Below the pieces are notes generated by a model. That model made no database searches. It worked only from the letters and a program-made list of their open reading frames with translations, and was not told where the DNA came from. Made by a program: the position numbers and the translations under genes. Shown here one piece after another: positions 29,556 to 64,000 of a DNA stretch of 64,000 nt (within the stretch, counting starts at the first letter, position 1; each line of letters starts with the position of its first letter). The DNA is from Naegleria gruberi (Eukaryota). The stretch lies in assembly GCA_000004985.1 (NCBI GenBank), contig GG738902.1; one strand, written 5' to 3'.

Positions 29556-31460
29556 TCAACTTGATAATTCAATCAGGTAAATTCCAATTTGAACTTTTTT
29601 AGGAATAAATTGTTGTAATTCAACAGTTTCGTTTCCAAGGCTCTCCATGATTTTTCTTAATAATTCATAAATTTCAATAATTTCACTTAATTCATCCTTA
29701 TTTAACAATTGAATGTCAGTTAAATATTCTTGATTCAAATATGTTTTGATAAATTCATCCAATACTATTAACTTCTCTTCCAATTCTTGAATATATTTGG
29801 TCAATTTCATTAAAAAATTCTCCGATTTAATGCTTTCTACCATACAAGTCATGTTTAACTTTAGTTCATCAACTTGTGAACTTTCTTGTTCAAGTTTCAA
29901 TTCATTAGCATGTTCAAAACAATTCTTTAACTTTTCACAAATTTCCAAATATTCTTTTTGAAATTCATTTTCTAATACAGTACATAAAACCTTAATTGCA
30001 TTGATTTGTGAATTGGATTGAGTTTCTTCTTGTCTTTCAATATTTGTTTCTTGTGTTTCGTCTTGTTCTTTAATATTTTCGTCTTGTTTTTCGAGAGTTT
30101 CTTGATTTTCATCATGTTTTTCCTCTTGTTGTTCGAGAGTTTCTTGGTTTTCATCATGTTTTTCAAGTGGTTCTTGTTTTTCAAGAATTTCTTTCTTAAT
30201 TTTATCTTTTTCAACTTTTTCATTCAATTCCTTCTTAATTTTGGAAATTTCCTTTCCGTTGACTTTCCATAAATTGTTAATTTTAATATTTGGTGATTGA
30301 AGTAATAATTTAACAATTTCTAAACGTCCTTTTTCACATGCAATATGTAATGGAGACTAATAAATATTTAAAAATGTTGTAATTATTATTACTTACTTCC
30401 TATTATGGTAATGTTTAAAATAAGTATTAAATACAAACCATCTAAATAATAATGTAAAATATTTTAAATATTTAATTCTTACATGCTACGAGGAAATAAT
30501 TAATAAATTAATTATTAATTTACATACTTCCTAAAATAGATAAATAATTTAATTGGTTAATTACTCACTTTCTAATAACAAAGTTGGCAAATTAATTTCA
30601 ATATTTAATAATACTAACTTCCTATTAAAAAAATTAATATTAAATATTAAAAATACTAACAATCTAAAAAAATGTAAATATTTAAAATTGTTTAAAAACT
30701 TACAACTCTCTAAAACAAATATACACGTAATTTAATTAGTAGAGACTTACTTGCTAATAAAAATATTAATTTAAGATTATATTACTTAAATTACATACTT
30801 CCTAATAAGGAACTTGTTCATAAATAAAGAATTTAATACTTACTCCCTAATAATATTAACATTAAATAGTTATAAGTGAAATACTAACTTTCTAATAAAT
30901 TATTTTATAAATAACTAAGTATTAAATACTTACATGCTAATAAAATGCTAATTTAATACAAAATTACCAAATTTAGAATACTTACATACTAAAAATAGTA
31001 TTATTTTTATATTTTTTAATATTAAATTACTTACAGTCTGAAAATATTATTATTACAATGCTAGCAACACTTACAAACTAATAGCATTAAATATAAATAA
31101 TTAATTATTCAATTCCTTACATACTAATTAATTATTTAGTATTTTACAATATTTCCTTAAATACTTACTTTCTACAATCATACCCATTTAGATCTTATTA
31201 AACAATTGATATTCTACTCACATACTACTCAATTTTAAATATTTATAATGTTAATATTAAATAGTACTTACTCCCTTATTCACATCAAGTCCTCCACAAT
31301 TCAACAATAACTTGACAATTTCCAAATGTCCCCTCTCACAAGCCATGTACAACAATGTCTTATTCCGATCAGATTCATTTACCTTCGTTGGCTTGAAATA
31401 CTTTTTAAACTCGGCAACGTTTCCACTATTTGCAGCATCTACAAGATGAGGAGAGAGCAT
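29556..31460 (-). CDS. Ankyrin-repeat protein with a long Glu/Lys-rich coiled-coil C-terminus. The first coding exon is 31460..31272, the last is 30356..29556, and about 915 bp of intron between them carries the tandem splice-site array.
   Basis: The ATG is in an A-rich context. Exon 1 is MLSPHLVDAANSG...TLLYMACERGHLEIVKLLLNCGGLDVNKG|GTAAGT, an ANK repeat ending in phase 0. The last exon is TTAG|SPLHIACEKGRLEIVKLLLQSPNIKIN..., the second ANK repeat entering in phase 0, followed by an E/K-rich helical region. The downstream ORF 29234..29572 (-1 frame; PVEEKKEE repeats) may be a continuation across a frameshift or an unrecognised intron. Confidence 0.6.
30380..31240 (-). repeat. Tandem array of about 20 diverged ~45-bp units, each carrying (on the minus strand) a 3' splice site YTAG, then 3 nt (6 nt in one unit), then a consensus 5' splice site GTAAGT / GTATGT / GTGAGT.
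   Basis: On the plus strand the recurring core is aaTACTTAC-NNN-CTAATAA. On the minus strand the units read TAATAG|GAA|GTAAGT, CGTAG|CAT|GTAAGA, TTTTAG|GAA|GTATGT, TTAG|AAA|GTGAGT and so on. All inter-signal spacers are multiples of 3 and none is a stop codon. Confidence 0.7.
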
Positions 31461-31611
31461 TTTGATGTTTGGTGTTGTTTTGTTTTTTTTGAATGAAATT
31501 TTCTTTTTATCACCATATTAAGGCCTTAATGAAAGTTCATTATGGTTTGGGAACTTGTAATTTCTAGAAGTTGCGTTTGGAGTTTAATTAGAATGTTTAA
31601 AAATTGAAGTA

Positions 31612-33585
31612 TTAATCAGAATCACCAGAATATGATTCATAATCATCGGTTGAAATCATTTCTTGTTCGCGTGGTAAACCATTAATGTAATCGGCATAAT
31701 CTACTCGCAAATATTTGACTAAATGGAAAAATTGAGATCGTAGCATGGTGTTACCTTGAACGAACTCTCGTGCTTCGATTTCTACACTATTACAGTTAAT
31801 TTCTAGTAAACGGATAGCTAGCTCAATTATTCCTGTTTGTATCAGGGCAAGATTCCTCTTATTTTCAATGTCAAAATTAAGAACTTTCAGTGTTTTAGTT
31901 TTGGCTAAAGTAAAGTTGACTGCCTTATCAATATCCAATAGAGCTATTAAACCTGCAAAAATGTAAATGGAACGTTTCTCCAACATTGCTCGCATTAAAA
32001 TTTCTACTAGCTTTTCAAGATTAGGTGGCTTAATTCCTTTCACAATATAGTCACAAACTAAATTGATGAGGCAGTTATTATTTAGTGGAATCCAAGAGTT
32101 TTTGATAGCCAAGCTATAAATAAATTCCATATTTGATACCGCATTGCTTATAGGTTCAATAGCGTCATACATTTGATATGAAACAAGTACTCTTGCTGGT
32201 CCAGTTAGTTCATTATTTGATCTGAAATAGAAGAGTAATAAATCCGAAATGACTTTCCTTATGTTATCATCCAAAAGTTGTTTCTCTGAAAGCAGTTGGT
32301 GTATGCGTAAACATAGAACCAATCGACCAGCCATTGTTTCTGGAAGTACGGTTTTCCAAGTTATAAATCCAGGTATTAAAGATTTAACAGCTAGCACCAT
32401 CCTTTCCGTCATTCCTAATATTATTAAAATGGTTTCTATGAATTTGAAATACTCAGATTCAAGTGGATATTTTACAATATTAGAAATTATACTTGTCAAT
32501 TCGTCATCCTTAATCATCTTGTTAGTTAATTCCATTGTAGCACACAAAAAATTAAGAAATGGTTCAACATCCTCAGGTGTTTCCACTTTAAATTCAATCG
32601 TACCGTTGTAAATTACTTCCAAACATGACTGATCGAGCATAATTTGGTCCAAATGATATGGTAAACCTAGTAATAAAATTTTTCTAATGGAATATGGAGC
32701 ATTTTCGAGAATCTCTTTGATATAGAAATTTCCGAATGTTTCATCGCTGAAAAGGGCACATTTCATGGCTATTTCTCGTAAATCTAACAACTCTGTAGCA
32801 TCCCCAATAATTCTAAAATAATGTGCAATGAATGCACTAAATTTGAGTTTTTCAACAACTTTCAAAGCTTTTCTTAATCTTTGATTGTGTTCTTCATTTC
32901 GTTCCAAATCACTAATAGCATCAAACTCTTGATTTAGAAAAGCAAATGTTGGAAACGGACAACTATGAGCATAGATTCGGAGTATGTCTATTAAATTCTC
33001 ATCTGGTTCTACGTCAATTCTTTCATATAATAGTTGGAATAAGTTTTGCAACATTGGTTCATTTTTGGTTGTACGAACAATTCTAAGGTCTGCATACTTT
33101 GAAAGTAATTTTTTTTCTCTTGTTGTCCATTTTGGACACATTGCCTTGTCATTCCAATATTTTTCATTATAATGTGACAAGAAATCAATTAACTTGATGT
33201 AAAAAACATGAGAAAGAGTAGCACCTTCAGTATTCATACACGCCCAGACAGCATGAAAATACCAATACGGTACCACATGTTCATACTTAGTATTTGGAAA
33301 CAGAAAATTGTCCCTTGTCTCCTTATAGTCATCCAAAAATCGATAAACCAACTGGCCAGCACCACCAAGGTTGATCACTTTAAATAAATTTGTAATATCA
33401 TCATCGTCACTCCAAGAAATTTCCGTAAATGTTTCTTCATCTTCCATCATGTCATTTTGAACAATATCACACAACAGTTCATAGCTTGTGTAAATGTCTC
33501 CCCCAGGCAGCTCATCGGACAGTTGTGACTTGTGCAAATGTTCCTTCAGAGCATCACGGTTAGGTCCATCACGAAGTTTGAACAT
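31612..33585 (-). CDS. Hypothetical protein (657 aa), predominantly helical, with an acidic C-terminal tail.
   Basis: Long ORF with an ATG start and neighbour-like codon usage. No recognisable domain. Confidence 0.5.
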   Translation of the reverse strand: MFKLRDGPNRDALKEHLHKSQLSDELPGGDIYTSYELLCDIVQNDMMEDEETFTEISWSDDDDITNLFKVINLGGAGQLVYRFLDDYKETRDNFLFPNTKYEHVVPYWYFHAVWACMNTEGATLSHVFYIKLIDFLSHYNEKYWNDKAMCPKWTTREKKLLSKYADLRIVRTTKNEPMLQNLFQLLYERIDVEPDENLIDILRIYAHSCPFPTFAFLNQEFDAISDLERNEEHNQRLRKALKVVEKLKFSAFIAHYFRIIGDATELLDLREIAMKCALFSDETFGNFYIKEILENAPYSIRKILLLGLPYHLDQIMLDQSCLEVIYNGTIEFKVETPEDVEPFLNFLCATMELTNKMIKDDELTSIISNIVKYPLESEYFKFIETILIILGMTERMVLAVKSLIPGFITWKTVLPETMAGRLVLCLRIHQLLSEKQLLDDNIRKVISDLLLFYFRSNNELTGPARVLVSYQMYDAIEPISNAVSNMEFIYSLAIKNSWIPLNNNCLINLVCDYIVKGIKPPNLEKLVEILMRAMLEKRSIYIFAGLIALLDIDKAVNFTLAKTKTLKVLNFDIENKRNLALIQTGIIELAIRLLEINCNSVEIEAREFVQGNTMLRSQFFHLVKYLRVDYADYINGLPREQEMISTDDYESYSGDSD

Positions 33586-38154: not shown

Positions 38155-39675
38155 ATGAGCGGTCAATCTGTGGTGATTACTCTGGTTGATCATCCTCAAC
38201 AGGACCATCAATATTTATTTAATCTTCTCTTTCAAAAGATGCAACACCAAATCAAAGGCTTTGTCCGTTGGTTTGAAAGGCGGGAAAATATTTTAAATGA
38301 AATTCGAGTAAATAATAATAATCGTGATGATGATCATGATGAATATTTCATTCCGAAACCCTTCTCTGTATGGATTGAAAAGGAGGAAAATTTAAAGAAA
38401 GAAATGGGTTTTTTACCAATTGAATTTTCGTTGGATAATGCAAGTCTGGTGGCTTATACGATTGTTGCAACTCTTTTCTCATTGTCGTCCAATATGTTTG
38501 AAATTGTCGTATTCAACAAGAATGAATGTACTAGTGAGAGGAGTGAAGGATTTCTTCTCACGAGCCTACTTTTAGATCAAAATGAGGAGGAGTTTATTGA
38601 AAGTTTTCCCAATGAATTGATTGGTTCGAAAGAATTTATGAAGAAAGCTGTCGAAATGTGTGGAACTATTGTTAGGTGTGAGTGTTTGAATAAGGAGTTT
38701 TTGCAGGATCGTGATTTTGTGTTAAGGGCTGTGAATAATGCACCAATTTCCCTCTTGGAAGAGATTCCACTTCAATATAGAAATGATGATGAGATTGTTT
38801 TTAAGAGTTGTTCATTCATCCCAGCATGGGATGCAGAATTAATGTCAGATCGTTTAAAGAGCGACAAATCTTTCCTTTTAAAGGTGATTGAGAACGATCC
38901 TCCCATCTTTAAGTGTATTAGTCCAGAACTAAAAACCGATACAGATTTCATTATGGAATGCCTTGATAGGGCTGGCACTACGCTATTTGATTACATTCCC
39001 GACTGGATTTTAGAATCAATCGTTAAGGATATCAATATATTGAAATCAGTTTCCTCCAAACGATTTATAAGGGATTATTTTGCACGAGCTGCCTCTAAAT
39101 TCCTCCCCCATGAAGTAATTATTGAACTTTCCAATGACAGAGAGTTTGCCTATCAATGCATTAAGAATCAATCAACAGCTGCTTCATTCTTCTCACCAGA
39201 TATTAGAAAAGAAATAGAATTTATCAAACTATCCAAGAATTTGAACATTGCCCCAGATAAGACAGTATTAGATCGTGAATTCCTGAAAGAAATGTATAGC
39301 TTGGACATTCAAAATTTCCACTACATGCCAGACGAGCTCAAGAATAACAAAACCTTTGTTTTGGAGTTGATGGAAATCAATGGATTAGGTTTGGAATTTC
39401 TCTCTTCTTCCCTAAGAACTGATCATGACATTATCCAACGAGCAATTCAACAAAATGGTTCCTCCCTCAATGTTGCCCTAACTAAAGAAAGACGAAACAA
39501 GAAACTTCAAGAAATGGCAACCGAAACTAGTGGCTATTTCGAATATTTACATGCTGACAACATGAAATTCTGGAAACACTTTAATTTAAGATTGGAGAAG
39601 GAGTACTTTGGATTTGACATTCCCAAACGTTTTTGTTCAGTAGCAGCGTTACACAAAAAGTACCAACTTGATTGA
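38155..39675 (+). CDS. Repeat protein with DUF4116-like repeats (tentative).
   Basis: About 40-aa repeats of the pattern L+xD+xFvLxAVxxnxxxLxYxxxEL+xD (LQDRDFVLRAVNNAPISLLEEIP; LKSDKSFLLKVIENDPPIFKCISPELKTDTDFIMECL; LKNNKTFVLELMEINGLGLEFLSSSLRTDHDIIQRAIQQNGSSL). Confidence 0.45.
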   Translation: MSGQSVVITLVDHPQQDHQYLFNLLFQKMQHQIKGFVRWFERRENILNEIRVNNNNRDDDHDEYFIPKPFSVWIEKEENLKKEMGFLPIEFSLDNASLVAYTIVATLFSLSSNMFEIVVFNKNECTSERSEGFLLTSLLLDQNEEEFIESFPNELIGSKEFMKKAVEMCGTIVRCECLNKEFLQDRDFVLRAVNNAPISLLEEIPLQYRNDDEIVFKSCSFIPAWDAELMSDRLKSDKSFLLKVIENDPPIFKCISPELKTDTDFIMECLDRAGTTLFDYIPDWILESIVKDINILKSVSSKRFIRDYFARAASKFLPHEVIIELSNDREFAYQCIKNQSTAASFFSPDIRKEIEFIKLSKNLNIAPDKTVLDREFLKEMYSLDIQNFHYMPDELKNNKTFVLELMEINGLGLEFLSSSLRTDHDIIQRAIQQNGSSLNVALTKERRNKKLQEMATETSGYFEYLHADNMKFWKHFNLRLEKEYFGFDIPKRFCSVAALHKKYQLD

Positions 39676-39828: not shown

Positions 39829-40911
39829 ATGGAAGAGTGTAACATCATCATTGAACCTTTTGCCTATGGCCTCGATAACAGCTCTGCTTTATCTACAACA
39901 ACTAGAAATGTTCATTATTTTTCTCTGAGCGCCTACGGTGTGACCATGTTGATGGCCATAGCACTGTTATTATTTATGGCAGTGTTACTTGTTAGGAAAG
40001 GTCATTCTATGGTTTCGAACAAAAAGTTGCTGTACCTCTTGACCATCTTTTTGAATATTATTCAGGTTGTGGCCATAATGTCAGGAGTTGGACATTCGGT
40101 GAGCAAGTTGACAAATGCTGCAGAGGTGGTTGGTCAGGCCTTTTTCATGATTCACTACGAGACGATTATTATAACATTATTCTTATCAATTATTTGCCAG
40201 AGTATGACAACAAAGGTTTTCTATACTGTTTATTTTGTTGGAAAGAGAAGAACAAAGCTCCAGACCTTTCTTAAACATTATGCAATTATCAATGCAATTA
40301 TTTGGACTATTTTGGTTTCCTTGTTAGTGATAACAATCTTTTTCACCTTGATGGCATACTACTTTCCTGGTGTGAATCAGGAAATTGCCAAAGATGCTGC
40401 TGTTGATAGGTTTTATGTTGATGCTGCTGTTGGTTGTTTTTACATTATTTCTGTAACTGTCACAGGAAGTGTCAATATTGCTTTGGTTGTTTATCTTATC
40501 AGATCAATCAGGGAGTCAGCTGCTAGATGTGGGCTTAAACCAAGTGAAGAACAGAACACTGCATCTAAAAAATTAATTGCTATCAGTATTAGTCAATTAT
40601 TTCTTGGAATTGGAATGGGATTAACAACATTTTTATTCATTTTAGGATTATTGGATTATATTGCATTTGCAGTTGCAAGTCACTTGCAAAGAATACTGGT
40701 ATTCGTTTATTCTTTGTTGGTAGTTTTCACTTTTGGGCCTCTGGATGATTTGAATAAGCACCTTTCCTCAAATTCTCAACTTAAAACCATTGCTTCTCCA
40801 ACTTCTCCACAAAGAGCAAAAACCAAATCAGAATCACCAGAAACTGAATTGAAAGGATTTGATATTGCATCACCCTCAATCAACCATTCAAATGTTGTTA
40901 GTAGTGTTTAA
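39829..40911 (+). CDS. Seven-transmembrane receptor-like (GPCR-like) membrane protein.
   Basis: Seven hydrophobic helices with loop spacing typical of 7TM receptors, and a Ser/Pro-rich cytoplasmic tail. Confidence 0.5.
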   Translation: MEECNIIIEPFAYGLDNSSALSTTTRNVHYFSLSAYGVTMLMAIALLLFMAVLLVRKGHSMVSNKKLLYLLTIFLNIIQVVAIMSGVGHSVSKLTNAAEVVGQAFFMIHYETIIITLFLSIICQSMTTKVFYTVYFVGKRRTKLQTFLKHYAIINAIIWTILVSLLVITIFFTLMAYYFPGVNQEIAKDAAVDRFYVDAAVGCFYIISVTVTGSVNIALVVYLIRSIRESAARCGLKPSEEQNTASKKLIAISISQLFLGIGMGLTTFLFILGLLDYIAFAVASHLQRILVFVYSLLVVFTFGPLDDLNKHLSSNSQLKTIASPTSPQRAKTKSESPETELKGFDIASPSINHSNVVSSV

Positions 40912-40941: not shown

Positions 40942-43900
40942 TTAATCAGCTAATTGCCTATTAGATGGTTTGATTTTAGTGGAAATTTCCCACAAATCTT
41001 CATCTGAATGATGAATAAGACGAGGCAATTCCTCAGTAAAGACGAATTGAAGATAGGCCAATTCTTGGAAGTCATAATTGAGACACAATTGTTGTAGGGA
41101 AGCAACACGCTCCAATGTCTTGAGGAGAATTCTCATCATCTTGTAATTAATTACCTTCTTGTTTGGACTTTTTGGATGGTCTAACAGTGGTTTGTTACCT
41201 TCCTTTGTGAATAAAACTTGACTTTGAAAGCTTCCTAAATATGGAACACATGGTAATTGTTTTTCTGACAAACTGTCATACATGGCAGCAATTTCCTTCG
41301 AATTGATAACCTTCTTTTGACAATCTTCCAATTCTTGATAAAGTTTGTGAACTTCCTTATTGTCTTCATAAAGCTCCTTGATTCTATAGACAGAGGTGGA
41401 TCTGAGAGCTCCTAACAATGCCATAAATCCGAAAAAGTTGTTTTGTTGATAGCATGACTGAGCTGAACACAAGACTTTTGTGAAAACCTTCTTTCTATCT
41501 CTGTCATTTGTTTGAACAAGTACCATTTCGTTCGCCCAATGTTGAACCAGTTTGAAATGCTCTTGCATGAATAGAATATTACTGCTGTACTTTTCTCTAA
41601 TTTCCTTATCCTTGCTTTCAATATAGTAAAATTCGTAAGGTTTGATTTTGAGGAAGAATTTAGCCTCCAATAGAGTAAGTTGATGAGCAATCTCGTTGGA
41701 AGGCCAAGCTACAATATCAAAAGTAATTTTGAACGGATTGGTAATACGTTGAGTAGTAAAGTACAATTCTCTATCGTGATTCCACTTTGACATTGGAATT
41801 TGTGGAGTGGATACCATTTGAAGTGTCAATCCTTTTGGAAGAATGAGTGTCTTGTCTGTTGATTGATCTCCATCTTGTCCAGGGCTTGTAATGTTACAAC
41901 GAGAGCCTGAAGATGCCTGAATGGACAAGACATTCAATAAGAGGGCATTTTGAATCTTGGCAATACTGGAACTGCTACTATCTGACATGTGTTCAATTTC
42001 CCGCATGAAATTAATACTCTTTGCAATACTTAAATTGTTAAAAGCATAAAAACCATCCTTGATTAATCTGGCTGCTGTTCTTTCTAAATTAATCTTGGCA
42101 ATAAACAAATTGTCCTTCTTGGAGGAGTCCATCTTTGATTGTTGATTCAAGTGTTTGTACTTGGAAATGAGAATATCAATAATGTGCTCTGGAGAACTAA
42201 ATAAATTATATGTCAAGTAGAACATTTGAGAAAAGTTTTCAGTATTTTCAATATCATTCTCTGGATTAAATCCTAAAATCTTATTAATGGATGCTTCCAA
42301 TGTTGCTGCCTTGAGAGATTTAGATTCCAAATCGACAATGTAGTCCTCAGGTTCGGCTTCATTAATATTGCTAATGGAAGATGCCTCTATTCTACTCAAA
42401 TATTCACTCAATAAAATATCACTACAGTTAGCACAGTGTGCTCTGAACACATCTGTATCATAGTCCAAGTCGTTTGCATCTGGACAAAAGACCAACAAGC
42501 TGTGAGATTTTTCCATGAACATTAATAAAGCAATGAGTAATCTAAACTTGTTTTCCTTCTTTAAGAATTTCATAGACAAGTCTCTTGAATTACTAATTTC
42601 ATGAACACTGATTCTCTCAGCAAAGTTGGTAATAAGCTCTGTCATGACACTTTTAACCATTATAAAGCAAGTATTACCATCATGTCTTAAAAGTGAGTGA
42701 ATGACTGTGTGTCGAATGAGTTGAATTAGTTTGTATAATAGTGCCTCAACAGTATCATCATCTGCTGCACTATCTGAAACATTTTCCAAAACAGAAATCA
42801 AGTGCTTGGTCATACCTCCTTCCTTTCCTATAAATAAGTTAAAGATTAAATAGACCACAATTTGATAAGATTTGCTAACAAAGTCAAGCTTTTTGGATTG
42901 TTGTTCAGATCTCTCTTTTGAAATACCTCTGAATGAAAGTACAACATTCTTGAAAAACTTTAAAACGTAAAATATAATACTAATGTCATTCAGATCGTTA
43001 GCAAAATAGAGGGTCTTTTTCTTCCACCACTCAATCAAGGTATCTCTATTACAATTTCTCATGGTCCACAACATGATAGTACTCAGAATAATATTAATTT
43101 CGTTGAATTGTTTGAGTTTGAGCAAAAGTTCTTCTCCTTTGGTAAAGAAGTTGTCAACTAATGAATTAAATAAAATTCCAATGACTCGCTCACGTTGTTC
43201 CCTCGATTGATATCTTTCATCATAATCAATCTTGATGAAAAGATCAAGGAAATATTTGGCTGTCTTGAAAATTATCTTTTCATTGCCAGCCTCAATTGAT
43301 TCCAAGAAGAAAGTAATGAGCTTGCTTACGAATGCGTTTTCCTTTCCAGCAGTGTCCAAATCCCAAATAGAGTGATAATCTGTAATAATAGCCAAAGATT
43401 CACTCAATAATCTAGAAGCAGTATCCTTGGAAGTGCATCGATTTACCTTTTTACAATAAAAATCAAAAACACCAGCCGATTCAGAATACCCCAAAAATGG
43501 AATTAAATCTCTGATAAATAGAGCAATATTTCTGTTACAGTAAACTACCAAATTATTGTTAGCTGCATTGTTGGTACCTAACAGTTTTTCCATTCCTTCA
43601 AAAAGTAATTGGATAAGACTCTTTGAAAGTTGAATAAGATCTGCCTCTTCATAATTTTTAACACCTTTGGATTGTGCAACAAGGAGACTCTTAATAGCCA
43701 TATCGAAAATAAACCAAGAATATCTGCATGACTCTGATTCAACACTGATATCGTCTTGTTGCTTTTGCTCCTTGCTATGCATGTAGAGAATGAATAAACT
43801 CAACAATTTGCAATGTAAAGTTTCATAATTAAATACATATTTCACATATCCAGAGAAAAATCTATTACCACGAGAGCTATTTCCACACAAGTCATGGAAG

Positions 43901-46900
43901 TGGTTCATACAAGTTACCAAGGCATCAAATGTTCTCACCTGAAGGTCTGATCTAATCTTCTCATGAGTAGCTATATCCTTGACGAATTGGTCACTATCGG
44001 AATAGTTCAGAATTTCTAGAAGAATATCAAATATCAAGTACATGTATGGCATACACAAGCTGAAATCTATCAATACAATCTTGTTGTATAAGTGATAAAC
44101 AATATATTCTAGAATGGCTGATTTTTGAAGAGATGTACTCTTTGTAAATGCATTATAAGCAGCAAATAATAATTGCAATCTTTCATCGGGTGGTTGAATA
44201 GTAGAGACAAGATTTGCATCAATTTTGAGTTTGGCTTTTTCAGTAAGTTTGTTAGACATCAAGTCCTTCTCACTGGCTGACAAGTAACCAGGATTTAGTT
44301 TTGAATAAATCATCAATGTCTCATTAGTAACACTTTGTCTAATTGCCATATAATTCACAAGTAAATCACCAAATATTGTCTTATCTGCTTCATAGACAGA
44401 ATTCTTTGCTGCCAATGGTAAGAAGGCATAACCAAGAATGTTTCTATTAGAAGAACCGAAATGAGCATTTCTAATATCTAGGGAGTCCATATATTTTTGA
44501 ACTTTACCTTTAGAATCCTCAACATCAATACTGTAGAATGTAAATAACAAGTGATGGCCTGCAGTAATGTTTTCAGAGGTGAGTCCCAACAAGTCAACCT
44601 TAATTTCATCAACAAAGTGTACATTTTTCTTTGTATTGTTGGCGAGACTGGAGAATTGATATCTTTGTAGTTTGTTATTGTATTTTCCAATCAATCGTTT
44701 CAACATTTTGCTCTCAGTATTGGTAGTAGAGATAAAATCTTCTGGAGATGGCTTAGAGAGATCATTTTCTCTTACAGCCACTTCAATTAGTAAATGTTTA
44801 CATGATTTAACTCCTCCCAACCGAGCAAACTTTAAATGAATGTACATCATGTTCTTATAGACCATATTTGGATATCTTGATTTTGTCCAAGGAATTTCTT
44901 CAATAATATCTTCATTCATTTCCTCTTCTAGCATTAAATTGGATTTGTTTCTTCTCTTTTGTGATTCTGTACTTCTACGGTGAGGTGAATCTGGACGGAA
45001 TGGGTCTGTCCTCTCTTCATCCCAGAAATCCAATGAGAATGTATCATCCTCAATGTAACTAGATTGTTTAGTGAGAGTTGAACGAGAGAATGAACTCTTC
45101 CAATCCTTTTCCAATCTCGACTCGATAGTAACTTTACCTTTGATATGGTAAGCTTGAAGTCCGTTGTGTGAACTCTGAGGATCCAAATGTTTCAATAGAG
45201 TGATAATGTTAAATGTTTCAATATTGGCATCCACAATGATTGGATAAAACCTTTCCAAAACAATCTTATTAAAATTCAAATCAATCTTGGTGTCATCAAT
45301 ATTTTCCGAGAAGAAGGATGAGCTCATTGAGTTTGAGGCTGTATTGCTGAAACTATTATTTAAACTTGTACCTTTCTTTTGTGCGAAAAGTTTACAAAAT
45401 CCTAGCAAGAAGGACTGTTCAAAGTGAGCTAAAGTTTTCCTTCTCTCATCATTAGTATTATTCTTCCTGTCCTTTGAAGAACCTCCAAGTTCTTCTGCGG
45501 CCTCTTGTACTGTACTATGGGGAGCAATTCGTCTCACAACAAGAACACAATAAACTTGATCATGTGGATAACTAACATGGAAAGTTTTTTCTTGCACAAT
45601 TGTTGGAGGCATTCTCAAATGTTCTTGTGCAGATGGAGGAAGAGTTGAAAGTTGAGCCTCCGTGAGGAAATTAAAATACCAGTCCTCACTAATCTTCCTC
45701 TCAGTCTTGCAATCATACAACGAAAGGGAGAATGTGAATAATTCTCTCGAATCAACCATCAATGAAAAATCAGACACAGACAGAGTAATAGTAATCTTGC
45801 TCTTGACAGGAAACTCGAGAGATGGCAATGTCCTATGGCACAGAATTAAATCCAAAGGTTTGTACTCATAGTATGGTTTGAGAAGCATCATTAACCTCTC
45901 TTCCAGAATTTCATTCTTGATATTCATGTCAGCAGCTGTTGGAGCACTACTCAAGATTGCATTTCCAAATTTGGCAGACAATCTTCTATTTCCGTTAACT
46001 GAATATGTGAGCTCGTTGATAAATGTAACCATTTCATCATTTAAATTTTCCTTGGTAAGATCCTCCAATTTTCTTTCCTCTGTATTAATATCAATTTCGG
46101 CATAGATATCAGCCGTCTTGATATCATTAATCGATTGAGAAATGCTGACATTAGCAGAAGAAGAATTGCCTTCTCTAGGTGAAGTTTTTGGAGTATTGGA
46201 ATCATCCTGTTGTTGTTTGTTCCAAAATCCTGAAAATCTCATTGAAAGAGTCTTTTGTCTTCTCTCTTGTTTGTCAACTTTTCCAACATCCAATTTTAGA
46301 CTACTCTTATTATTATCATTACTTTCACTCATTAAATCACTTTCACTCTTCTTCTTTTTCAAAGATGACAATGCACCCTTGATTGCCTTTCCAATAGATC
46401 CTTGTCTAGTGAGTCCCTTTCCACTTCCGTTTGCATTTTCCATATAACTGTGAGGTAGTGGACTAGAATCTCCAAATATTGCCTCTTGACTTCTTTCATC
46501 TTCCAATTCTCGAATGGCTGATAAATGTTTCAAGAAGGAATCACCTCTACCTCGTTTAATTGATTGAGATGACAAGGCAATACTAGATAAAGTCTGAGAG
46601 GGAGGAGAAGAAGGTTGTTGTCTGGAAGAAGTGATTGAAAGAGGAGCAACTTGTTGTTCATCATAACCTAGAGGATTCTTACTCCTGAATGGAGGTAATA
46701 TTTGTTTATATTGACAGTCTTCATTCAAATCCCAAACGTATTCAAAATAGCAAGCTCTCGACAGGGCACTATTATGAAATGCATTAGATGTTGGAGAAGT
46801 TGGTGGTATATTTAAACCATTATTTGCTGCAATTGTTGCTGATTGATCAAGAGCAGAGAGTGCTGTTTCCGAATTTGAAGTTCTAATAAGTTGTGAAAGC

Positions 46901-47808
46901 ATTGAATTGTTAGTATTGCTATTATTGCTGTTAGAAGAACGTTTTGGAGTTTGATTGAGAGATGAACTTGTAGAGGAAGGAGGTGTTGGTGAAAAGGAAG
47001 AAAACGAAGGACTCTTCTTGTATGATGATTGTTGAGTTTGTTGCTGAATGGTATTAAGTGATAATGGCCACACATACATCTTTTCAAAGTGTTTCATCAT
47101 TCCGTGTGGAACAGCATGATGTAATCGATACAATATCGAATCATCACTCAGTGGAGCCGATTGTCCCATCATTAATTGTGGAGAGAATACATTAAATTCC
47201 TCATCATTCTCCATCATCACTCCCATAGAATTTAAATTATTATCCTCATCTTCCGTTAGAATGGTCGTACTCGTATTGCTATTATTTGTTTGACTCGATC
47301 GAGTTGCCGAGTTATTGTTGTTATTGTTTTGTTCTTGGGCAGATAAATTATTTGTTGCCGCCACATAAAATTGATTTGCCGTAAATAACGAAGCAGAGGG
47401 AATGATCAAATTGGAGGGAAAATCAAAACTTGTTTGTGGTTTGTGTACTGAAGAGTTTGTTGTTGTTGATGATGAAGATATTGTATTATTGTTAGAATTG
47501 GTGGTCCAAAATTGATGATATAAATTATTAGAGGGGAAGACTTTAGGAGTAACCGATGCTGTTGTTGCTGATGCTGATACTGTTGATGATGAAACATTAT
47601 TCATCATTATTGTATTATTATTTGGAAGGGAGAGAAGTAGACTGGGACATTTGTAGTAGAATGATGGATAGGAACCAGATGGTTTCAATCTGCTATTACA
47701 TTCGACAATGTATGGATACATTGTTTTGTATGAATTGTTATCTATTTGATGTTCATTAGGTGATGATGGTGATATAATGGGTGAACCAATTGTGATGTTT
47801 GGTTGCAT
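40942..47808 (-). CDS. Large (2288 aa) Ras guanine-nucleotide exchange factor: a C-terminal RasGEF (CDC25-homology) domain with an upstream REM-like region, and a long Asn/Ser-rich N-terminal part of unknown function.
   Basis: The C-terminal ~300 aa carry the CDC25 signatures IAHQLTLLEAKFFLKIKPYEF, NNFFGFMALLGALRSTSVYRI and CVPYLGSFQSQVLFTKEGN. The ORF is uninterrupted and starts with ATG. Confidence 0.8.
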   Translation of the reverse strand: MQPNITIGSPIISPSSPNEHQIDNNSYKTMYPYIVECNSRLKPSGSYPSFYYKCPSLLLSLPNNNTIMMNNVSSSTVSASATTASVTPKVFPSNNLYHQFWTTNSNNNTISSSSTTTNSSVHKPQTSFDFPSNLIIPSASLFTANQFYVAATNNLSAQEQNNNNNNSATRSSQTNNSNTSTTILTEDEDNNLNSMGVMMENDEEFNVFSPQLMMGQSAPLSDDSILYRLHHAVPHGMMKHFEKMYVWPLSLNTIQQQTQQSSYKKSPSFSSFSPTPPSSTSSSLNQTPKRSSNSNNSNTNNSMLSQLIRTSNSETALSALDQSATIAANNGLNIPPTSPTSNAFHNSALSRACYFEYVWDLNEDCQYKQILPPFRSKNPLGYDEQQVAPLSITSSRQQPSSPPSQTLSSIALSSQSIKRGRGDSFLKHLSAIRELEDERSQEAIFGDSSPLPHSYMENANGSGKGLTRQGSIGKAIKGALSSLKKKKSESDLMSESNDNNKSSLKLDVGKVDKQERRQKTLSMRFSGFWNKQQQDDSNTPKTSPREGNSSSANVSISQSINDIKTADIYAEIDINTEERKLEDLTKENLNDEMVTFINELTYSVNGNRRLSAKFGNAILSSAPTAADMNIKNEILEERLMMLLKPYYEYKPLDLILCHRTLPSLEFPVKSKITITLSVSDFSLMVDSRELFTFSLSLYDCKTERKISEDWYFNFLTEAQLSTLPPSAQEHLRMPPTIVQEKTFHVSYPHDQVYCVLVVRRIAPHSTVQEAAEELGGSSKDRKNNTNDERRKTLAHFEQSFLLGFCKLFAQKKGTSLNNSFSNTASNSMSSSFFSENIDDTKIDLNFNKIVLERFYPIIVDANIETFNIITLLKHLDPQSSHNGLQAYHIKGKVTIESRLEKDWKSSFSRSTLTKQSSYIEDDTFSLDFWDEERTDPFRPDSPHRRSTESQKRRNKSNLMLEEEMNEDIIEEIPWTKSRYPNMVYKNMMYIHLKFARLGGVKSCKHLLIEVAVRENDLSKPSPEDFISTTNTESKMLKRLIGKYNNKLQRYQFSSLANNTKKNVHFVDEIKVDLLGLTSENITAGHHLLFTFYSIDVEDSKGKVQKYMDSLDIRNAHFGSSNRNILGYAFLPLAAKNSVYEADKTIFGDLLVNYMAIRQSVTNETLMIYSKLNPGYLSASEKDLMSNKLTEKAKLKIDANLVSTIQPPDERLQLLFAAYNAFTKSTSLQKSAILEYIVYHLYNKIVLIDFSLCMPYMYLIFDILLEILNYSDSDQFVKDIATHEKIRSDLQVRTFDALVTCMNHFHDLCGNSSRGNRFFSGYVKYVFNYETLHCKLLSLFILYMHSKEQKQQDDISVESESCRYSWFIFDMAIKSLLVAQSKGVKNYEEADLIQLSKSLIQLLFEGMEKLLGTNNAANNNLVVYCNRNIALFIRDLIPFLGYSESAGVFDFYCKKVNRCTSKDTASRLLSESLAIITDYHSIWDLDTAGKENAFVSKLITFFLESIEAGNEKIIFKTAKYFLDLFIKIDYDERYQSREQRERVIGILFNSLVDNFFTKGEELLLKLKQFNEINIILSTIMLWTMRNCNRDTLIEWWKKKTLYFANDLNDISIIFYVLKFFKNVVLSFRGISKERSEQQSKKLDFVSKSYQIVVYLIFNLFIGKEGGMTKHLISVLENVSDSAADDDTVEALLYKLIQLIRHTVIHSLLRHDGNTCFIMVKSVMTELITNFAERISVHEISNSRDLSMKFLKKENKFRLLIALLMFMEKSHSLLVFCPDANDLDYDTDVFRAHCANCSDILLSEYLSRIEASSISNINEAEPEDYIVDLESKSLKAATLEASINKILGFNPENDIENTENFSQMFYLTYNLFSSPEHIIDILISKYKHLNQQSKMDSSKKDNLFIAKINLERTAARLIKDGFYAFNNLSIAKSINFMREIEHMSDSSSSSIAKIQNALLLNVLSIQASSGSRCNITSPGQDGDQSTDKTLILPKGLTLQMVSTPQIPMSKWNHDRELYFTTQRITNPFKITFDIVAWPSNEIAHQLTLLEAKFFLKIKPYEFYYIESKDKEIREKYSSNILFMQEHFKLVQHWANEMVLVQTNDRDRKKVFTKVLCSAQSCYQQNNFFGFMALLGALRSTSVYRIKELYEDNKEVHKLYQELEDCQKKVINSKEIAAMYDSLSEKQLPCVPYLGSFQSQVLFTKEGNKPLLDHPKSPNKKVINYKMMRILLKTLERVASLQQLCLNYDFQELAYLQFVFTEELPRLIHHSDEDLWEISTKIKPSNRQLAD

Positions 47809-48096: not shown

Positions 48097-49782
48097 TTAT
48101 TGTCTTGTTTCAAAGTCAATGAGGTATGGTTCAAAGACTGTTCTAGTAACAATATAAGTTTCTGGAACGGCATCTTGTGCTTCTTCCAGACCTTTAGGTA
48201 CCTTTAGTCTATAATTCTTCAACAAAAAGACAAGAATTAACTTCATCTCCAACAAGGCCATTCTCTTACCAATGCAATCTCTTGGTCCAATCGAGAATGG
48301 AAGAATACCATCACTTCCGAAATCAATATTCAACTCTCCCATAGGTCCTTTTCCATATGTTTCTCCAGTTTCATTCTCACCAACTTCATCAGAAGTAGCA
48401 GCTGCAGTACTTGTACTCTTCTTATCCATGAATCTGTATGGATCAAAGTCATCGTGTCCTTCCTTTGCATAATAATGTTGTGAAAAGTAAGAGATGGTTA
48501 CAGAGGTTCCTTGAGGATAATGAACTCCATTGATGAAATCTCCCTTCTTACTATTGATAACTCTGGCACCACCACCGACTGGTGTCTTGGTTCTGAGTAC
48601 TTCCTTGATGAATGAAGTGAGGAGAGGCAACTTGTTGGTAATGAGTTCAAAGGAAATATCATCAGCATGTTTAATTTCTTGGTCAATTTCTCTGACAACT
48701 TCATCTTGGAATTGTTGATTCTTGGCAAGCATTCTTAACATGAAATTGAGAGAGGCAGAACTTGTCTCGAATCCAGCAAAGAATACTATAAAAATTGCAG
48801 ATAACAATTCATCTCTTGACAATTTTTCATCTTCACTACTGGCAGCTGCTGATGATTTCAATAACAAGGTAAGTAAATCTTCATCATCCTTTTGAATGAA
48901 TTCATTAGAATCCATTTCCTTTTGTTTCTTATCAATCATAGTCAAGGTAGCTACTTTGAATCTTTCCTTGGCATCTCTAAATCTCTTGAAAATTCCAAAT
49001 GGAGCATATTCAAACAGAAACTTTGGCATTACAAAGGTATAGATTAAACCAGTCAACAAGTCAGTAACCCAATCGTGCAATTCATCTCTATACTTGGCTC
49101 CATTATCAAAAATTCCAACATCATAATCAAAGGCAACTCTGTTAATAACATTCAAAGTGATGGATTTAAATTCATTGGTAACATTGACCTTTCTAATAGA
49201 TCCATCTGTTTCACTTCCATAAATTGACTTCCAAAAGTTTAACATTTTCTTAGTTTCTTCCAAAGTAACTCTAAATACATTCTTCAAGTGAGAACTGCTA
49301 CTAAAGATTGGATTAGCCATAGTTCTATGCTTTTTCCAAAGTGGATTTGAAGAATCTGCAGAGAACATGTTTGGTCCAAATAGACCAACTGGTGCCAAAC
49401 TTTCTCCTTTGGAAATTGTCTTGTACTTTTTCACAAGAATTTCCTTGATTAAAGCTTGATCTCTGGCAACAAGAATTTGACAACTGCCACCCATTTGAAC
49501 CTTAACCACTTTGGCATTTGGATTCTTCTTGAATGCTTCCAAAGTACATTCATATTGATTGTGTACGTAAATTCTCTTCTTTACAAGTGCATCTAACACA
49601 GCTGGTAAAAAGCTGACATAACCTGGAGTATCCTTGAATTTAATATAGGTTTTCAAGAAGGAAATGGTATGAAGAATTAGCAAGAGGGCAAATAATCCCA
49701 CAATTACCATCAAGAGATTCCAGATTGATAATTGGAACCATCCCGATGATAGTGATGATACCACTGTTGATGTTGTTTCCAT
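48097..49782 (-). CDS. Cytochrome P450 with an N-terminal membrane anchor and an acidic/Thr-rich insertion before the haem loop.
   Basis: FSIGPRDCIGKRMALLEM (FxxGxRxCxG haem-binding loop), EVLRTKTP (ExxR), AGFETSSASL (I-helix A/G-G-x-E-T-S) and a hydrophobic N-terminus. Confidence 0.85.
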   Translation of the reverse strand: METTSTVVSSLSSGWFQLSIWNLLMVIVGLFALLLILHTISFLKTYIKFKDTPGYVSFLPAVLDALVKKRIYVHNQYECTLEAFKKNPNAKVVKVQMGGSCQILVARDQALIKEILVKKYKTISKGESLAPVGLFGPNMFSADSSNPLWKKHRTMANPIFSSSSHLKNVFRVTLEETKKMLNFWKSIYGSETDGSIRKVNVTNEFKSITLNVINRVAFDYDVGIFDNGAKYRDELHDWVTDLLTGLIYTFVMPKFLFEYAPFGIFKRFRDAKERFKVATLTMIDKKQKEMDSNEFIQKDDEDLLTLLLKSSAAASSEDEKLSRDELLSAIFIVFFAGFETSSASLNFMLRMLAKNQQFQDEVVREIDQEIKHADDISFELITNKLPLLTSFIKEVLRTKTPVGGGARVINSKKGDFINGVHYPQGTSVTISYFSQHYYAKEGHDDFDPYRFMDKKSTSTAAATSDEVGENETGETYGKGPMGELNIDFGSDGILPFSIGPRDCIGKRMALLEMKLILVFLLKNYRLKVPKGLEEAQDAVPETYIVTRTVFEPYLIDFETRQ

Positions 49783-53535: not shown

Positions 53536-54756
53536 TTAGATGTGATTAAATAAAATCTCTACATCAGATAATCTTTGTTCTCTACATTTCCAAAATAACC
53601 TCTCCTGCATTTCTCTTTCAAATTGTTCTGGTTTTCTATTGCCATTCAAGAGACAAGGAGAAATGAATGTGTTTTTCGAATTATGATCTAATATTCTCTC
53701 CAATACACTATTCACTTCTTCCATTTCTGTAGTATTCACAATATGAAAGGAATGAATCTTGTTAAATTCCATCTCATTTTCGAAATCCAAATAATGAGAA
53801 ACTATGGAATTAACAACCTTCTTCAGCTCATGCTTATTAATAATGTCTTTAAATTCAGGTCTCATTTTGAAATTTCCCAAATTAATTGAATGTCCTTTTT
53901 GTAATTTCTTAATTAGAATATCTGGTTTTGTAAAGATTACAATTTTCCTTGCTCTTCTTAAAAAATTCGAATTTATCAATTCTCCTAGCAACATTTTCGA
54001 TTCTTGCATCCTCAAAGTTCGTGCGTCCTCAACTGTATATTGATCTAGCTCCGCAAGTGATACCAATAAAATGGCAAGTGATTGACCATTGAAACAATTA
54101 ATCCATTTCTTTCTTTGACTTCTAGATCCTCCCACATTCTTAACAAGAATGTTATTGTATTTGAAATCTCGTACTCCCATTGAACTTGTATAGGATAAAG
54201 CCATAGGAAAGAATTCACTTTTTGATTTAATTCTGGAAATTAATTCTTCTAAATTTTCCAAAATTAGTAAGTTCATTACAATGTTAGGATCTTTGATATT
54301 TTCGGAAATGTTAGGACTGATTGCATTCCATTTAGTTTCGAATGATTCTCTAAAAAATGGAATATTCCAAATATACATCAACAATCCACAATAATCAAAT
54401 TCTGAAATTTGTGAATCATCAATATTTGATTTATCATTCAAATTCTCCAAACATGGTCCGAAACTCTTTGGAATCATGTCGATTATTCTATTCCTTTCAC
54501 TTTCTTCCAAAATAGTCCACAATCTTTTAATCATCAGGGAGCAAACTATTTGTAAATCATGATTAAACTCATCTCGATTCGAATAGTTTCGATTCTTCCT
54601 CAAAATACGTTCAATCATATAATAAAACGTTGAAGTTCCACTATCAGCTGTTCCCAAAATAATCCATTCATCTTCAGTTGATAATAACTGCTCTTGGTGA
54701 ATTGTTATTGTTGACTTTCCGATATCTGGTTTAGTACGTGATGACTTCGAGCCCAT
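53536..54756 (-). CDS. Heterotrimeric G-protein alpha-subunit-like protein with degenerate nucleotide-binding and catalytic motifs (candidate pseudo-GTPase). The N-terminus is MGSKSS (N-myristoylation consensus).
   Basis: Collinear with G-alpha by eye. G1 is ILGTADSGTST where the consensus is GAGESGKST (Lys to Thr). G3 is NVGGSRSQRKKWINCF where the consensus is DVGGQRSERKKWIHCF (Asp to Asn; the catalytic Gln to Ser). G4 is FTKPD where the consensus is NKxD. G5 is IVNTTE where the consensus is TCATDT. Confidence 0.65.
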   Translation of the reverse strand: MGSKSSRTKPDIGKSTITIHQEQLLSTEDEWIILGTADSGTSTFYYMIERILRKNRNYSNRDEFNHDLQIVCSLMIKRLWTILEESERNRIIDMIPKSFGPCLENLNDKSNIDDSQISEFDYCGLLMYIWNIPFFRESFETKWNAISPNISENIKDPNIVMNLLILENLEELISRIKSKSEFFPMALSYTSSMGVRDFKYNNILVKNVGGSRSQRKKWINCFNGQSLAILLVSLAELDQYTVEDARTLRMQESKMLLGELINSNFLRRARKIVIFTKPDILIKKLQKGHSINLGNFKMRPEFKDIINKHELKKVVNSIVSHYLDFENEMEFNKIHSFHIVNTTEMEEVNSVLERILDHNSKNTFISPCLLNGNRKPEQFEREMQERLFWKCREQRLSDVEILFNHI

Positions 54757-62068: not shown

Positions 62069-62212
62069 GGGTTTGGGTTTGGGTTTGGGTTTGGGTTTGG
62101 GTTTGGGTTTGGGTTTGGGTTTGGGTTTGGGTTTGGGTTTGGGTTTGGGTTGGGTTTGGGTTTGGGTTTGGGTTTGGGTTTGGGTTTGGGTTGGGTTTGG
62201 GTTTGGGTTTGG
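62069..62212 (+). repeat. Interstitial (TTTGGG)n telomere-repeat array (about 24 units), running into an N gap.
   Basis: Perfect gggttt hexamers with occasional gggtt variants; the G-rich strand is on the + strand. Confidence 0.9.
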
Positions 62213-63316: not shown

Positions 63317-63630
63317 AGTTGAATAGTAAACATCCTGAAATGATACCAAAGTATTTGAAATTGATATATATTGTTATTAACATGATTTAAAAGGTGATAT
63401 ATTGATTTGAAATGATTTTGAAATGTTTTCATTGATATTCTAATTGTCTAATCTATTATATGAAATTAACTTATATAAGTCATTATAATGATGTAATATT
63501 ATGTTATATTATGATTATATATTCAATTTGGAGTATATTGATATATAATATATTGATTTATAATGAGTATTTATTGAGATAATTAATTAAGAAGAATAAA
63601 AGTCAAAAGGTTGGGTCTGACCTTAGTCGT

Positions 63631-64000
63631 GGGTTTTGGTTTGGGTTTGGGTTTGGGTTTGGGTTTGGGTTTGGGTTGGGTTTGGGTTTGGGTTTGGGTT
63701 TGGGTTTGGGTTTGGGTTTGGGTTTGGGTTTGGGTTTGGGTTTGGGTTTGGGTTTGGGTTTGGGTTTGGGTTTGGGTTTGGGTTTGGGTTTGGGTTTGGG
63801 TGTTTGGGTTTGGGTTTGGGTTTGGGTTTGGGTTTGGGTTTGGGTTTGGGTTTGGGTTTGGGTTGGGTTTGGGTTTGGGTTTGGGTTTGGGTTTGGGTTT
63901 GGGTTTGGGTTTGGGTTTGGGTTTGGGTTTGGGTTTGGGTTTGGGTTTGGGTTTGGGTTTGGGTTTGGGTCCGGGTTTGGGTTTGGGTTTGGGTTTGGGT
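63631..64000 (+). repeat. Terminal telomere array (TTTGGG)n, about 60 units, with the G-rich strand running 5'->3' toward the window end. Variants: GGGTT (one T missing) several times, GGGTGTTTGGG near 63800, and GGGTCCGGGTTT near 63968.
   Basis: Uninterrupted hexamer array to the last base of the window, so this is the right-hand chromosome or contig end. Confidence 0.9.

Follow-up and report, generated by a model that had tools for sequence, protein, structure and literature searches.

We studied one gene in a 64,000-nucleotide (nt) stretch of DNA from Naegleria gruberi (contig GG738902.1 of assembly GCA_000004985.1), and we refer to the whole of this stretch as the window. The gene, NAEGRDRAFT_73162 (labelled P0001 in our tree), encodes a homolog of heterotrimeric G-protein alpha subunits (G-alpha). 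On balance, it seems probable that its product is a pseudo-GTPase that has been maintained in evolution. It probably acts at the membrane, as an adaptor or competitor that does not depend on nucleotide, and it belongs with a divergent clade of G-alphas specific to Naegleria and Willaertia. The protein had been named as a candidate pseudo-GTPase in an original prediction that was made from the nucleotide sequence alone. Our alignments support this call, in that the P-loop lysine, the arginine finger, the aspartate of the DxxG motif and the catalytic glutamine are all replaced.

Identification of the gene and its family

NAEGRDRAFT_73162 is an open reading frame (ORF) on the minus strand that begins with ATG and encodes 406 amino acids followed by a stop codon. 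In-frame stops were found within 50 nt upstream of the ATG. The translation of the ORF is a 100% match to the N. gruberi protein XP_002671918.1 (UniProt D2VVW3), and therefore the gene has a single exon. The database annotation of XP_002671918.1 is "predicted protein" and nothing more, and no mention of the accessions of this gene was found in the literature searched.

The protein matched the Pfam G-alpha profile PF00503 with 162.8 bits (E = 1.5e-47; the cut-off is 48.8 bits). The match extended over residues 28-357, corresponding to profile positions 21-331 of 333, which confirms the collinearity with G-alpha claimed in the original prediction. A weak Pfam match to the Arf family (21.7 bits) was below its cut-off of 22.3 and was rejected, as it reflects the shared Ras-like core only. 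A phmmer search of the PDB matched 353 distinct sequences at E <= 0.01, and the best of them was G-alpha-q (2e-16). All 60 of the matches listed were G-alpha subunits or G-alpha chimeras.

An AlphaFold2 model of the protein was built from an alignment of 23 sequences. It contained the Ras-like strands as expected, and helices at residues 61-174 were placed between beta1 plus the P-loop and beta2. Using Foldseek, the model was aligned to crystal and cryo-electron microscopy structures of G-alpha over about 350 columns (E ~1e-13, template modelling scores of 0.5-0.6). MAFFT alignment further revealed that the helical domain contains a subclade-specific insertion, NAISPNISENIKDPNI. Sequence and predicted structure together thus identify NAEGRDRAFT_73162 as a clear G-alpha homolog, with a Ras-like domain and an inserted helical domain.

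Residues lost and kept at the nucleotide site

The motifs were placed by a phmmer alignment to G-alpha-q and by two MAFFT alignments with human G-alpha-i1, and all three were concordant. The motifs of the human G-alpha-i1 reference sequence were checked; replaced positions are numbered according to G-alpha-i1. The coordinates of each motif in the window were checked by translation.

The P-loop (G1) is GTADSGTST, compared with GAGESGKST in G-alpha-i1. K46 has become Thr (Thr41 of the protein) and G42 has become Ala, with S47 and T48 kept. In switch I (G2), LSYTSSMGV stands against RTRVKTTGI of G-alpha-i1. The arginine finger R178 is Tyr189 here, T181 is Ser192, and T182, a position that contacts RGS proteins, is Met193; G183 is kept. 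This segment was modelled with low confidence, as the predicted local distance difference test (pLDDT) score was below 50 at residues 177-192. In switch II (G3), NVGGSRSQRKKWINCF was compared with DVGGQRSERKKWIHCF of G-alpha-i1. The changes D200N and Q204S turn DVGGQ into NVGGS, and the partner face of switch II is kept (R205, S206, R208, K209, K210, W211, C214 and F215). Residues 206-225 are identical to human G-alpha-i1 at 13 of 20 positions, while the identity of the whole protein is about 20%. In G4, FTKPD corresponds to LNKKD of G-alpha-i1; N269 has become Thr, and K270 (Lys277) and D272 (Asp279) are kept. In G5, IVNTTE replaces FTCATD, which includes the change A326T. The Lys-to-Thr change in the P-loop and the Asp-to-Asn and Gln-to-Ser changes in switch II had all been noticed in the original prediction, and the three alignments agree on them. 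The replacement of the arginine finger by Tyr189 and the retention of the magnesium (Mg) ligands are additions to it.

We then compared these changes with the conservation of the family, using 38 positions with a conservation of 90% or more across 93 canonical G-alphas. NAEGRDRAFT_73162 keeps 25 of the 38 (M1, G2, L39, G40, G45, S47, T48, W131, P169, G183, V201, G202, G203, R205, R208, K210, W211, F215, E236, D237, R242, E245, K270, D272 and K277). The remaining 13 have changed: L37I, L38I, G42A, K46T, Q52M, D173 (a gap), R178Y, T181S, D200N, Q204S, F250L, N269T and A326T. L37I, L38I, T181S and F250L are mild changes. Most of the other nine make contacts to the nucleotide or in catalysis, or are located within or next to the P-loop and switch I. 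K46, D200 and Q204 are each 100% conserved in the 93 canonical G-alphas. Mild changes aside, the losses cluster on nucleotide, Mg and catalytic contacts as judged from the alignments, whereas positions of the structural core and of the switch II face have been preserved.

In G proteins, GTP hydrolysis is essentially abolished when R178 and Q204 are missing. The joint loss of the P-loop lysine and the DxxG aspartate is the classical way in which phosphate and Mg binding is abolished in P-loop nucleoside triphosphatases, and in a G protein that lacks K46 and D200 such binding would be weakened severely. Because R178 and Q204 are lost together with K46 and D200, the protein would be a pseudo-GTPase, most likely empty or weakly loaded. 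A GTPase fold kept in spite of the loss of these four residues, as alignment and model indicate here, is what distinguishes a pseudo-GTPase.

A divergent clade and the probable order of the losses

A HMMER search over 1.84 billion representative proteins yielded 2742 relatives at E <= 1e-3, four of them at E <= 1e-30. The best 150 of the 2742 relatives were aligned to G-alpha-i1 and used as a census. Among them, the lysine was lost from a well-aligned P-loop only in NAEGRDRAFT_73162, in its paralog NAEGRDRAFT_70767 (P0002) and in NAEGRDRAFT_50404 of N. gruberi (P0045). P0143 also has no P-loop lysine; here the entire region of the P-loop consists of unrelated sequence, and the gene was probably mis-called.

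Three features are common to the nearest relatives, namely FTKPD in G4, HIVNT in G5 and a C-terminal extension of the form FISPCL...L[TS]D[IV]xI. These features were found in P0003-P0009, P0013, P0016, P0021 and P0045, and NAEGRDRAFT_73162 has all three hallmarks (its extension reads FISPCL...LxDI). The cysteine of the extension is nearly invariant in P0004-P0009, P0013, P0016, P0021 and P0045. P0020 is a fragment of 270 amino acids that ends right after FTKPD, so only its G4 could be checked. P0022 is a looser relative, with TKVD in G4, VVNLT in G5 and the extension present. The members of the clade come from N. gruberi, N. lovaniensis (P0013), Willaertia magna (P0022) and environmental assemblies. 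In a neighbour-joining tree, bootstrap support was 100% for the core clade, for the group of P0001, P0002 and P0003, and for the pair of P0001 and P0002. A word-indexed search with a subfamily profile retrieved only four clade members among abundant canonical G-alphas. A search with a profile of the C-terminal half (G4 to the C-terminus) gave zero matches and did not recover the query sequences themselves. Two metagenome scans likewise turned up no relative.

The clade changes the meaning of some of the altered motifs. P0004 has VKPD and VNTI alongside a perfect P-loop, GTSDSGKST, and an intact DVGGQ in DVGGQRKERRKW. Relatives whose P-loop and DVGGQ are intact thus have the G4 and G5 changes too, and these changes do not speak for a loss of binding. 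Judged by these sequences, they are ancestral traits of the clade and no sign of decay or lost binding. The original prediction had listed TKPD and VNTT among the lesions of a protein in which every nucleotide-contacting motif was altered. Both motifs are indeed present, but their reading as lesions did not hold, as they are clade-wide and include members with an intact P-loop, and the Mg ligands and the Lys and Asp of G4 are kept. We therefore rejected TKPD as evidence for lost guanine binding.

In most clade members another residue (A, S, R, K, V, D, T or Y) stands at the position of the catalytic glutamine, and in several the arginine finger is replaced. The sister of the pair, P0003 (NAEGRDRAFT_75669), has an intact P-loop, GTANSGKST, with DVGGA in switch II (Gln to Ala) and Tyr at R178. 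P0045 has the P-loop GSGAST and EIGGS in switch II. By phylogeny, its lysine was lost independently, and P-loop degeneration has occurred more than once among the G-alphas of N. gruberi.

From the tree, the losses seem to have taken place in two steps. The ancestor shared with P0003 would first have lost the hydrolysis machinery, the arginine finger becoming Tyr and the catalytic glutamine Ser or Ala. The ancestor of P0001 and P0002 would then have lost the P-loop lysine (to Thr) and the DxxG aspartate (to Asn). The product would have no GTPase cycle; it would be hydrolysis-dead and most likely nucleotide-free, or else weakly and statically loaded.

Termini and partner-binding surfaces

The N-myristoylation motif rule is that of PROSITE PS00008. 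The N-terminus, MGSKSSR, has the Gly2 and Ser6 of the consensus and no Pro at position 7, and the MGxxxS motif claimed in the original prediction is present. It has no Cys for palmitoylation, and basic residues follow. Among canonical G-alphas, 93-97% conserve M1 and G2, and every clade member that aligns in this region has Gly2. From its sequence, NAEGRDRAFT_73162 is predicted to be myristoylated. At the other end, the C-terminal extension has no equivalent in canonical G-alphas. A helix was predicted in it at residues 378-393 by AlphaFold2, with low confidence.

The protein retains the G-alpha fold, a myristoylation signal and an almost canonical switch II surface, RxxxRKKWxxCF. In G-alphas, this is the surface touched by G-beta and likewise by effectors and RGS proteins. 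Because the surface is conserved, we propose that the protein is anchored at the membrane and serves in G-protein signalling as an adaptor or competitor that works independently of nucleotide. Such a protein would keep hold of G-beta-gamma, or of some other ligand of switch II (an effector or an RGS-type partner), and would not be switchable by a receptor.

Several observations weigh against this reading. First, both Mg ligands are retained (S47 as Ser42 and T181 as Ser192), as are Gly210, Lys277 and Asp279. Given the retained Mg ligands and the Lys and Asp of G4, some residual nucleotide binding is possible; weak binding would place the protein in a pseudoGTPase class other than class i. Second, canonical G-beta-gamma binding requires a long N-terminal helix. 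The segment before beta1 has only about 28 residues here and includes Pro10 and Gly13; its pLDDT was below 50, and it was modelled as a helix only at residues 16-21. These properties of the segment speak against a canonical heterotrimer and make G-beta-gamma binding by NAEGRDRAFT_73162 doubtful. Third, the extension stands in place of the receptor-coupling C-terminus. Fourth, the AlphaFold2 model as a whole was moderate (pLDDT 65.3, predicted template modelling score 0.59). Finally, the selection test described below was made at the protein level, is indirect and leans on the annotated protein model of P0002. The suggestion in the original prediction that the protein could still bind receptors, G-beta-gamma or effectors is therefore upheld only in part. 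The conserved switch II face favours it, but the short and poorly modelled N-terminal helix region and the replaced C-terminus do not.

The retained ligands could also mean that the protein is a G-alpha that is always on, in which nucleotide is bound and not hydrolyzed and a constitutive signal is set by abundance or localisation. In this case, nucleotide would be held by the backbone amides of the P-loop and by Ser42, Thr43, Ser192, Gly210, Lys277 and Asp279. The K-P-D of G4 is invariant across the clade, and the P-loop is identical in both paralogs. P0003, with an intact P-loop and without the arginine finger or the glutamine, carries the signature of a GTP-locked protein, so this state existed in the lineage. 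TKxD is the normal, functional G4 of Rac and Cdc42. The IRGM 'GMS' immunity-related GTPases have a natural substitution of the P-loop lysine (GKS to GMS), regulate their canonical 'GKS' relatives and still bind nucleotide, although, as members of another GTPase family, they offer an analogy only. However, K46 and D200 are both lost in NAEGRDRAFT_73162 in spite of their complete conservation in canonical G-alphas, and the pocket has the extra changes G42A, Q52M and A326T. We thus regard a GTP-locked G-alpha, the main alternative, as unlikely, and the pseudo-GTPase described above remains our preferred reading.

Selection on the gene

The paralog P0002 lies on a different scaffold and is 82.8% identical to NAEGRDRAFT_73162 over 400 aligned residues. 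It keeps GTADSGTST without any change, N-x-GGS, TKPD and VNTT. The two proteins differ by 69 replacements among the 400 aligned sites, with a mean BLOSUM62 score of +0.54. For comparison, the coding sequence from the window was mutated neutrally to the same protein divergence in 2000 simulation runs. The simulated replacements had a mean BLOSUM62 score of -0.40 +/- 0.20, and the observed value was reached in none of the 2000 runs. On average, 5.8 stop codons arose in the simulations, and the probability of having none, as observed, was 0.003. In a Tajima relative-rate test with P0003 as the outgroup, the two paralogs had 17 and 9 unique changes. The difference is not significant (p = 0.12), and therefore the copy in the window is not the faster-decaying one. 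In the C-terminal extension the two paralogs hardly differ, the last few residues excepted. Taken together, the simulation, the relative-rate test and the conserved extension argue for purifying selection on the protein and for a gene that is not decaying.

These results bear on the idea that NAEGRDRAFT_73162 is a young, decaying or unexpressed subtelomeric duplicate in which stop codons have yet to arise. Besides the position of the gene near telomere-like repeats, this idea draws on its isolation. Protein searches found no relative with more than 44% identity outside the N. gruberi pair, and no exact copy was present in any other assembly or transcriptome of the collection searched. The switch I segment also differs between the paralogs at 4 of 7 positions. 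However, an intact ORF of 406 codons in DNA of 31% GC, the conservative replacements and the symmetric rates are not what such a duplicate would be expected to leave. Moreover, 25 of the 38 family-invariant positions are kept, and the losses fall on the nucleotide pocket rather than at random. A decaying duplicate seems quite improbable to us. Decay of the gene had been named in the original prediction as something that would undo its call; the intact ORF, the lesions shared with the paralog, the absence of stops and the conservative replacements all speak against it.

It is scarcely credible that the alignments are an artefact concealing a normal GTPase with its true motifs elsewhere, for example in TKPDIGKST at residues 8-16, since these residues do include the strings TKPD and GKST but a regular-expression scan found no GxxxxGK[ST] or DxxGQ elsewhere in the 406-residue protein, and the motifs fell in the same places in three independent alignments. 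The original prediction had allowed for such displaced motifs, and none appeared. TKPDIGKST itself (54709-54735, minus strand) was rejected as a displaced P-loop or G4. The first Gly and the preceding beta strand are missing, it lies directly after the myristoylation site and the paralog has IGES. We judged the resemblance to be coincidental.

Comparison with known systems

The plant XLG (extra-large G) proteins are the best analogue in terms of function. They are functional and bind G-beta-gamma independently of nucleotide (PMC8584482). Like NAEGRDRAFT_73162, XLG1-3 have a G-alpha domain with degenerate nucleotide-binding motifs, which matches the mode predicted here. However, XLGs occur in plants only and have a long N-terminal extension, a Cys-rich region and nuclear localisation and export signals. 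NAEGRDRAFT_73162 has no N-terminal extension (its G-alpha domain begins at residue 28 of 406, immediately behind the MG signal); rather, it carries a myristoylation signal and an extension at its C-terminus. In terms of sequence, it is of independent heterolobosean origin, XLG-like in its predicted mode and not a member of the XLGs.

Class i pseudoGTPases neither bind nor hydrolyze GTP and serve as protein-protein interaction modules (PMC5593906; PMC12490416). In the pG domains of p190RhoGAP and the psGD of AAGAB, the G-domain fold is found without the G-motif residues, as in NAEGRDRAFT_73162. These are small-GTPase-like domains in larger proteins, whereas NAEGRDRAFT_73162 has a whole G-alpha architecture, and its loss of binding is deduced from the sequence.

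The G-alpha repertoire numbers 44 in N. gruberi and 13 in N. fowleri (PMC8584482). Naegleria G-alphas with deviant catalytic motifs had already been noted (PMC8584482, citing Anantharaman et al. 2011). In N. fowleri, the unusual TAQ P-loop of G-alpha-1 slows hydrolysis (PMC9283941, Bosch et al. 2022). Six N. fowleri G-alphas were studied as recombinant proteins; guanine nucleotide elicited a response in five of them, and G-alpha-6 gave one only with GDP plus aluminium fluoride (PMC9283941). Unlike NAEGRDRAFT_73162, none of these six was reported to be a form without the P-loop lysine (PMC9283941). Catalytically degenerate G-alphas of Naegleria are thus already recognised, and NAEGRDRAFT_73162 is a further uncharacterised one.

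A bolder interpretation is that Heterolobosea independently evolved nucleotide-independent G-alpha signalling, and we put it forward tentatively, as a possibility that is rather less than even. P0001, P0002 and NAEGRDRAFT_50404 would then be dominant negatives or scaffolds with an empty pocket, holding G-beta-gamma, seven-transmembrane (7TM) RGS receptors or effectors at the membrane. The extension would mark a new class of G-alpha, and in replacing the receptor-inserting tail it might provide for a different upstream coupling partner.

Annotated features and genomic neighbourhood

The features of NAEGRDRAFT_73162 are given in the table below.

Table 1. Positions in the window of the features identified in NAEGRDRAFT_73162.
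Feature	Position	Strand	Evidence
Complete coding sequence, G-alpha-like protein	53536..54756	-	ORF list, Pfam, match to XP_002671918.1
N-terminal MGSKSSR, N-myristoylation consensus	54736..54756	-	sequence
Degenerate P-loop (G1) GTADSGTST, residues 35-43	54628..54654	-	alignments
Predicted all-helical domain between G1 and switch I, ~residues 56-185	54202..54591	-	Pfam coverage, AlphaFold2, Foldseek, MAFFT
Switch I (G2) equivalent LSYTSSMGV, residues 187-195	54172..54198	-	MAFFT with G-alpha-i1
Switch II (G3) NVGGSRSQRKKWINCFNGQ, residues 207-225	54082..54138	-	alignments
G4 FTKPD, residues 275-279	53920..53934	-	alignments
G5 equivalent IVNTTE, residues 339-344	53725..53742	-	alignments
C-terminal extension after helix alpha5, FISPCLL...RLSDVEILFNHI, residues 358-406 (~48 amino acids)	53539..53685	-	alignment; Pfam match ends at 357

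Telomere-like (GGGTTT)n arrays were found at 62069-62212 (24 copies, followed by a run of N) and at 63630-64000 (about 62 copies, reaching the end of the window). Since the first of these tracts is about 7.3 kb away, NAEGRDRAFT_73162 is subtelomeric. This place fits a young, lineage-specific expansion of the family.

The original prediction had also pointed to a 7TM receptor-like protein and a large RasGEF in the window, and both ORFs are real. The RasGEF was identified by domain matches. It is encoded by an ORF of 2288 amino acids at 40942-47808 (minus strand), with a DOCK-type C2 domain (PF14429, residues 982-1209) and a C-terminal RasGEF domain (PF00617, residues 2039-2226). It is unusual for a module from a Rho-GEF family to be combined with the catalytic domain of a Ras-GEF. 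The ORF at 39829-40911 (plus strand, 360 amino acids) has about seven hydrophobic segments on the Kyte-Doolittle scale and no Pfam match; it may encode an orphan 7TM protein. In a eukaryotic genome, the proximity of these two genes to NAEGRDRAFT_73162 is no evidence for a functional link. A protein of 506 amino acids with five DUF4116 repeats (38155-39675, plus strand) and a cytochrome P450 of 561 amino acids (48097-49782, minus strand) are ordinary neighbours. At 30001-32000, the GC content dips to 0.248, compared with about 0.33 elsewhere in the window.

Significance

Because degenerate G-alphas had already been noted for Naegleria as a general phenomenon, the gain from the present case is incremental and not conceptual. 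What it adds is a stepwise path within one lineage, in which hydrolysis seems to have been lost first and the P-loop lysine later, in a protist whose G-alpha repertoire is among the largest known. If the reading is true biochemically, it would represent a second independent origin of nucleotide-independent G-alphas, after the plant XLGs. The two close paralogs and their lysine-keeping sister would then form a compact system for the roles of G-alphas that are not switches. The finding also bears on the wiring of signalling in Naegleria, a genus whose pathogenic member N. fowleri is the subject of work on G-protein drug targets.

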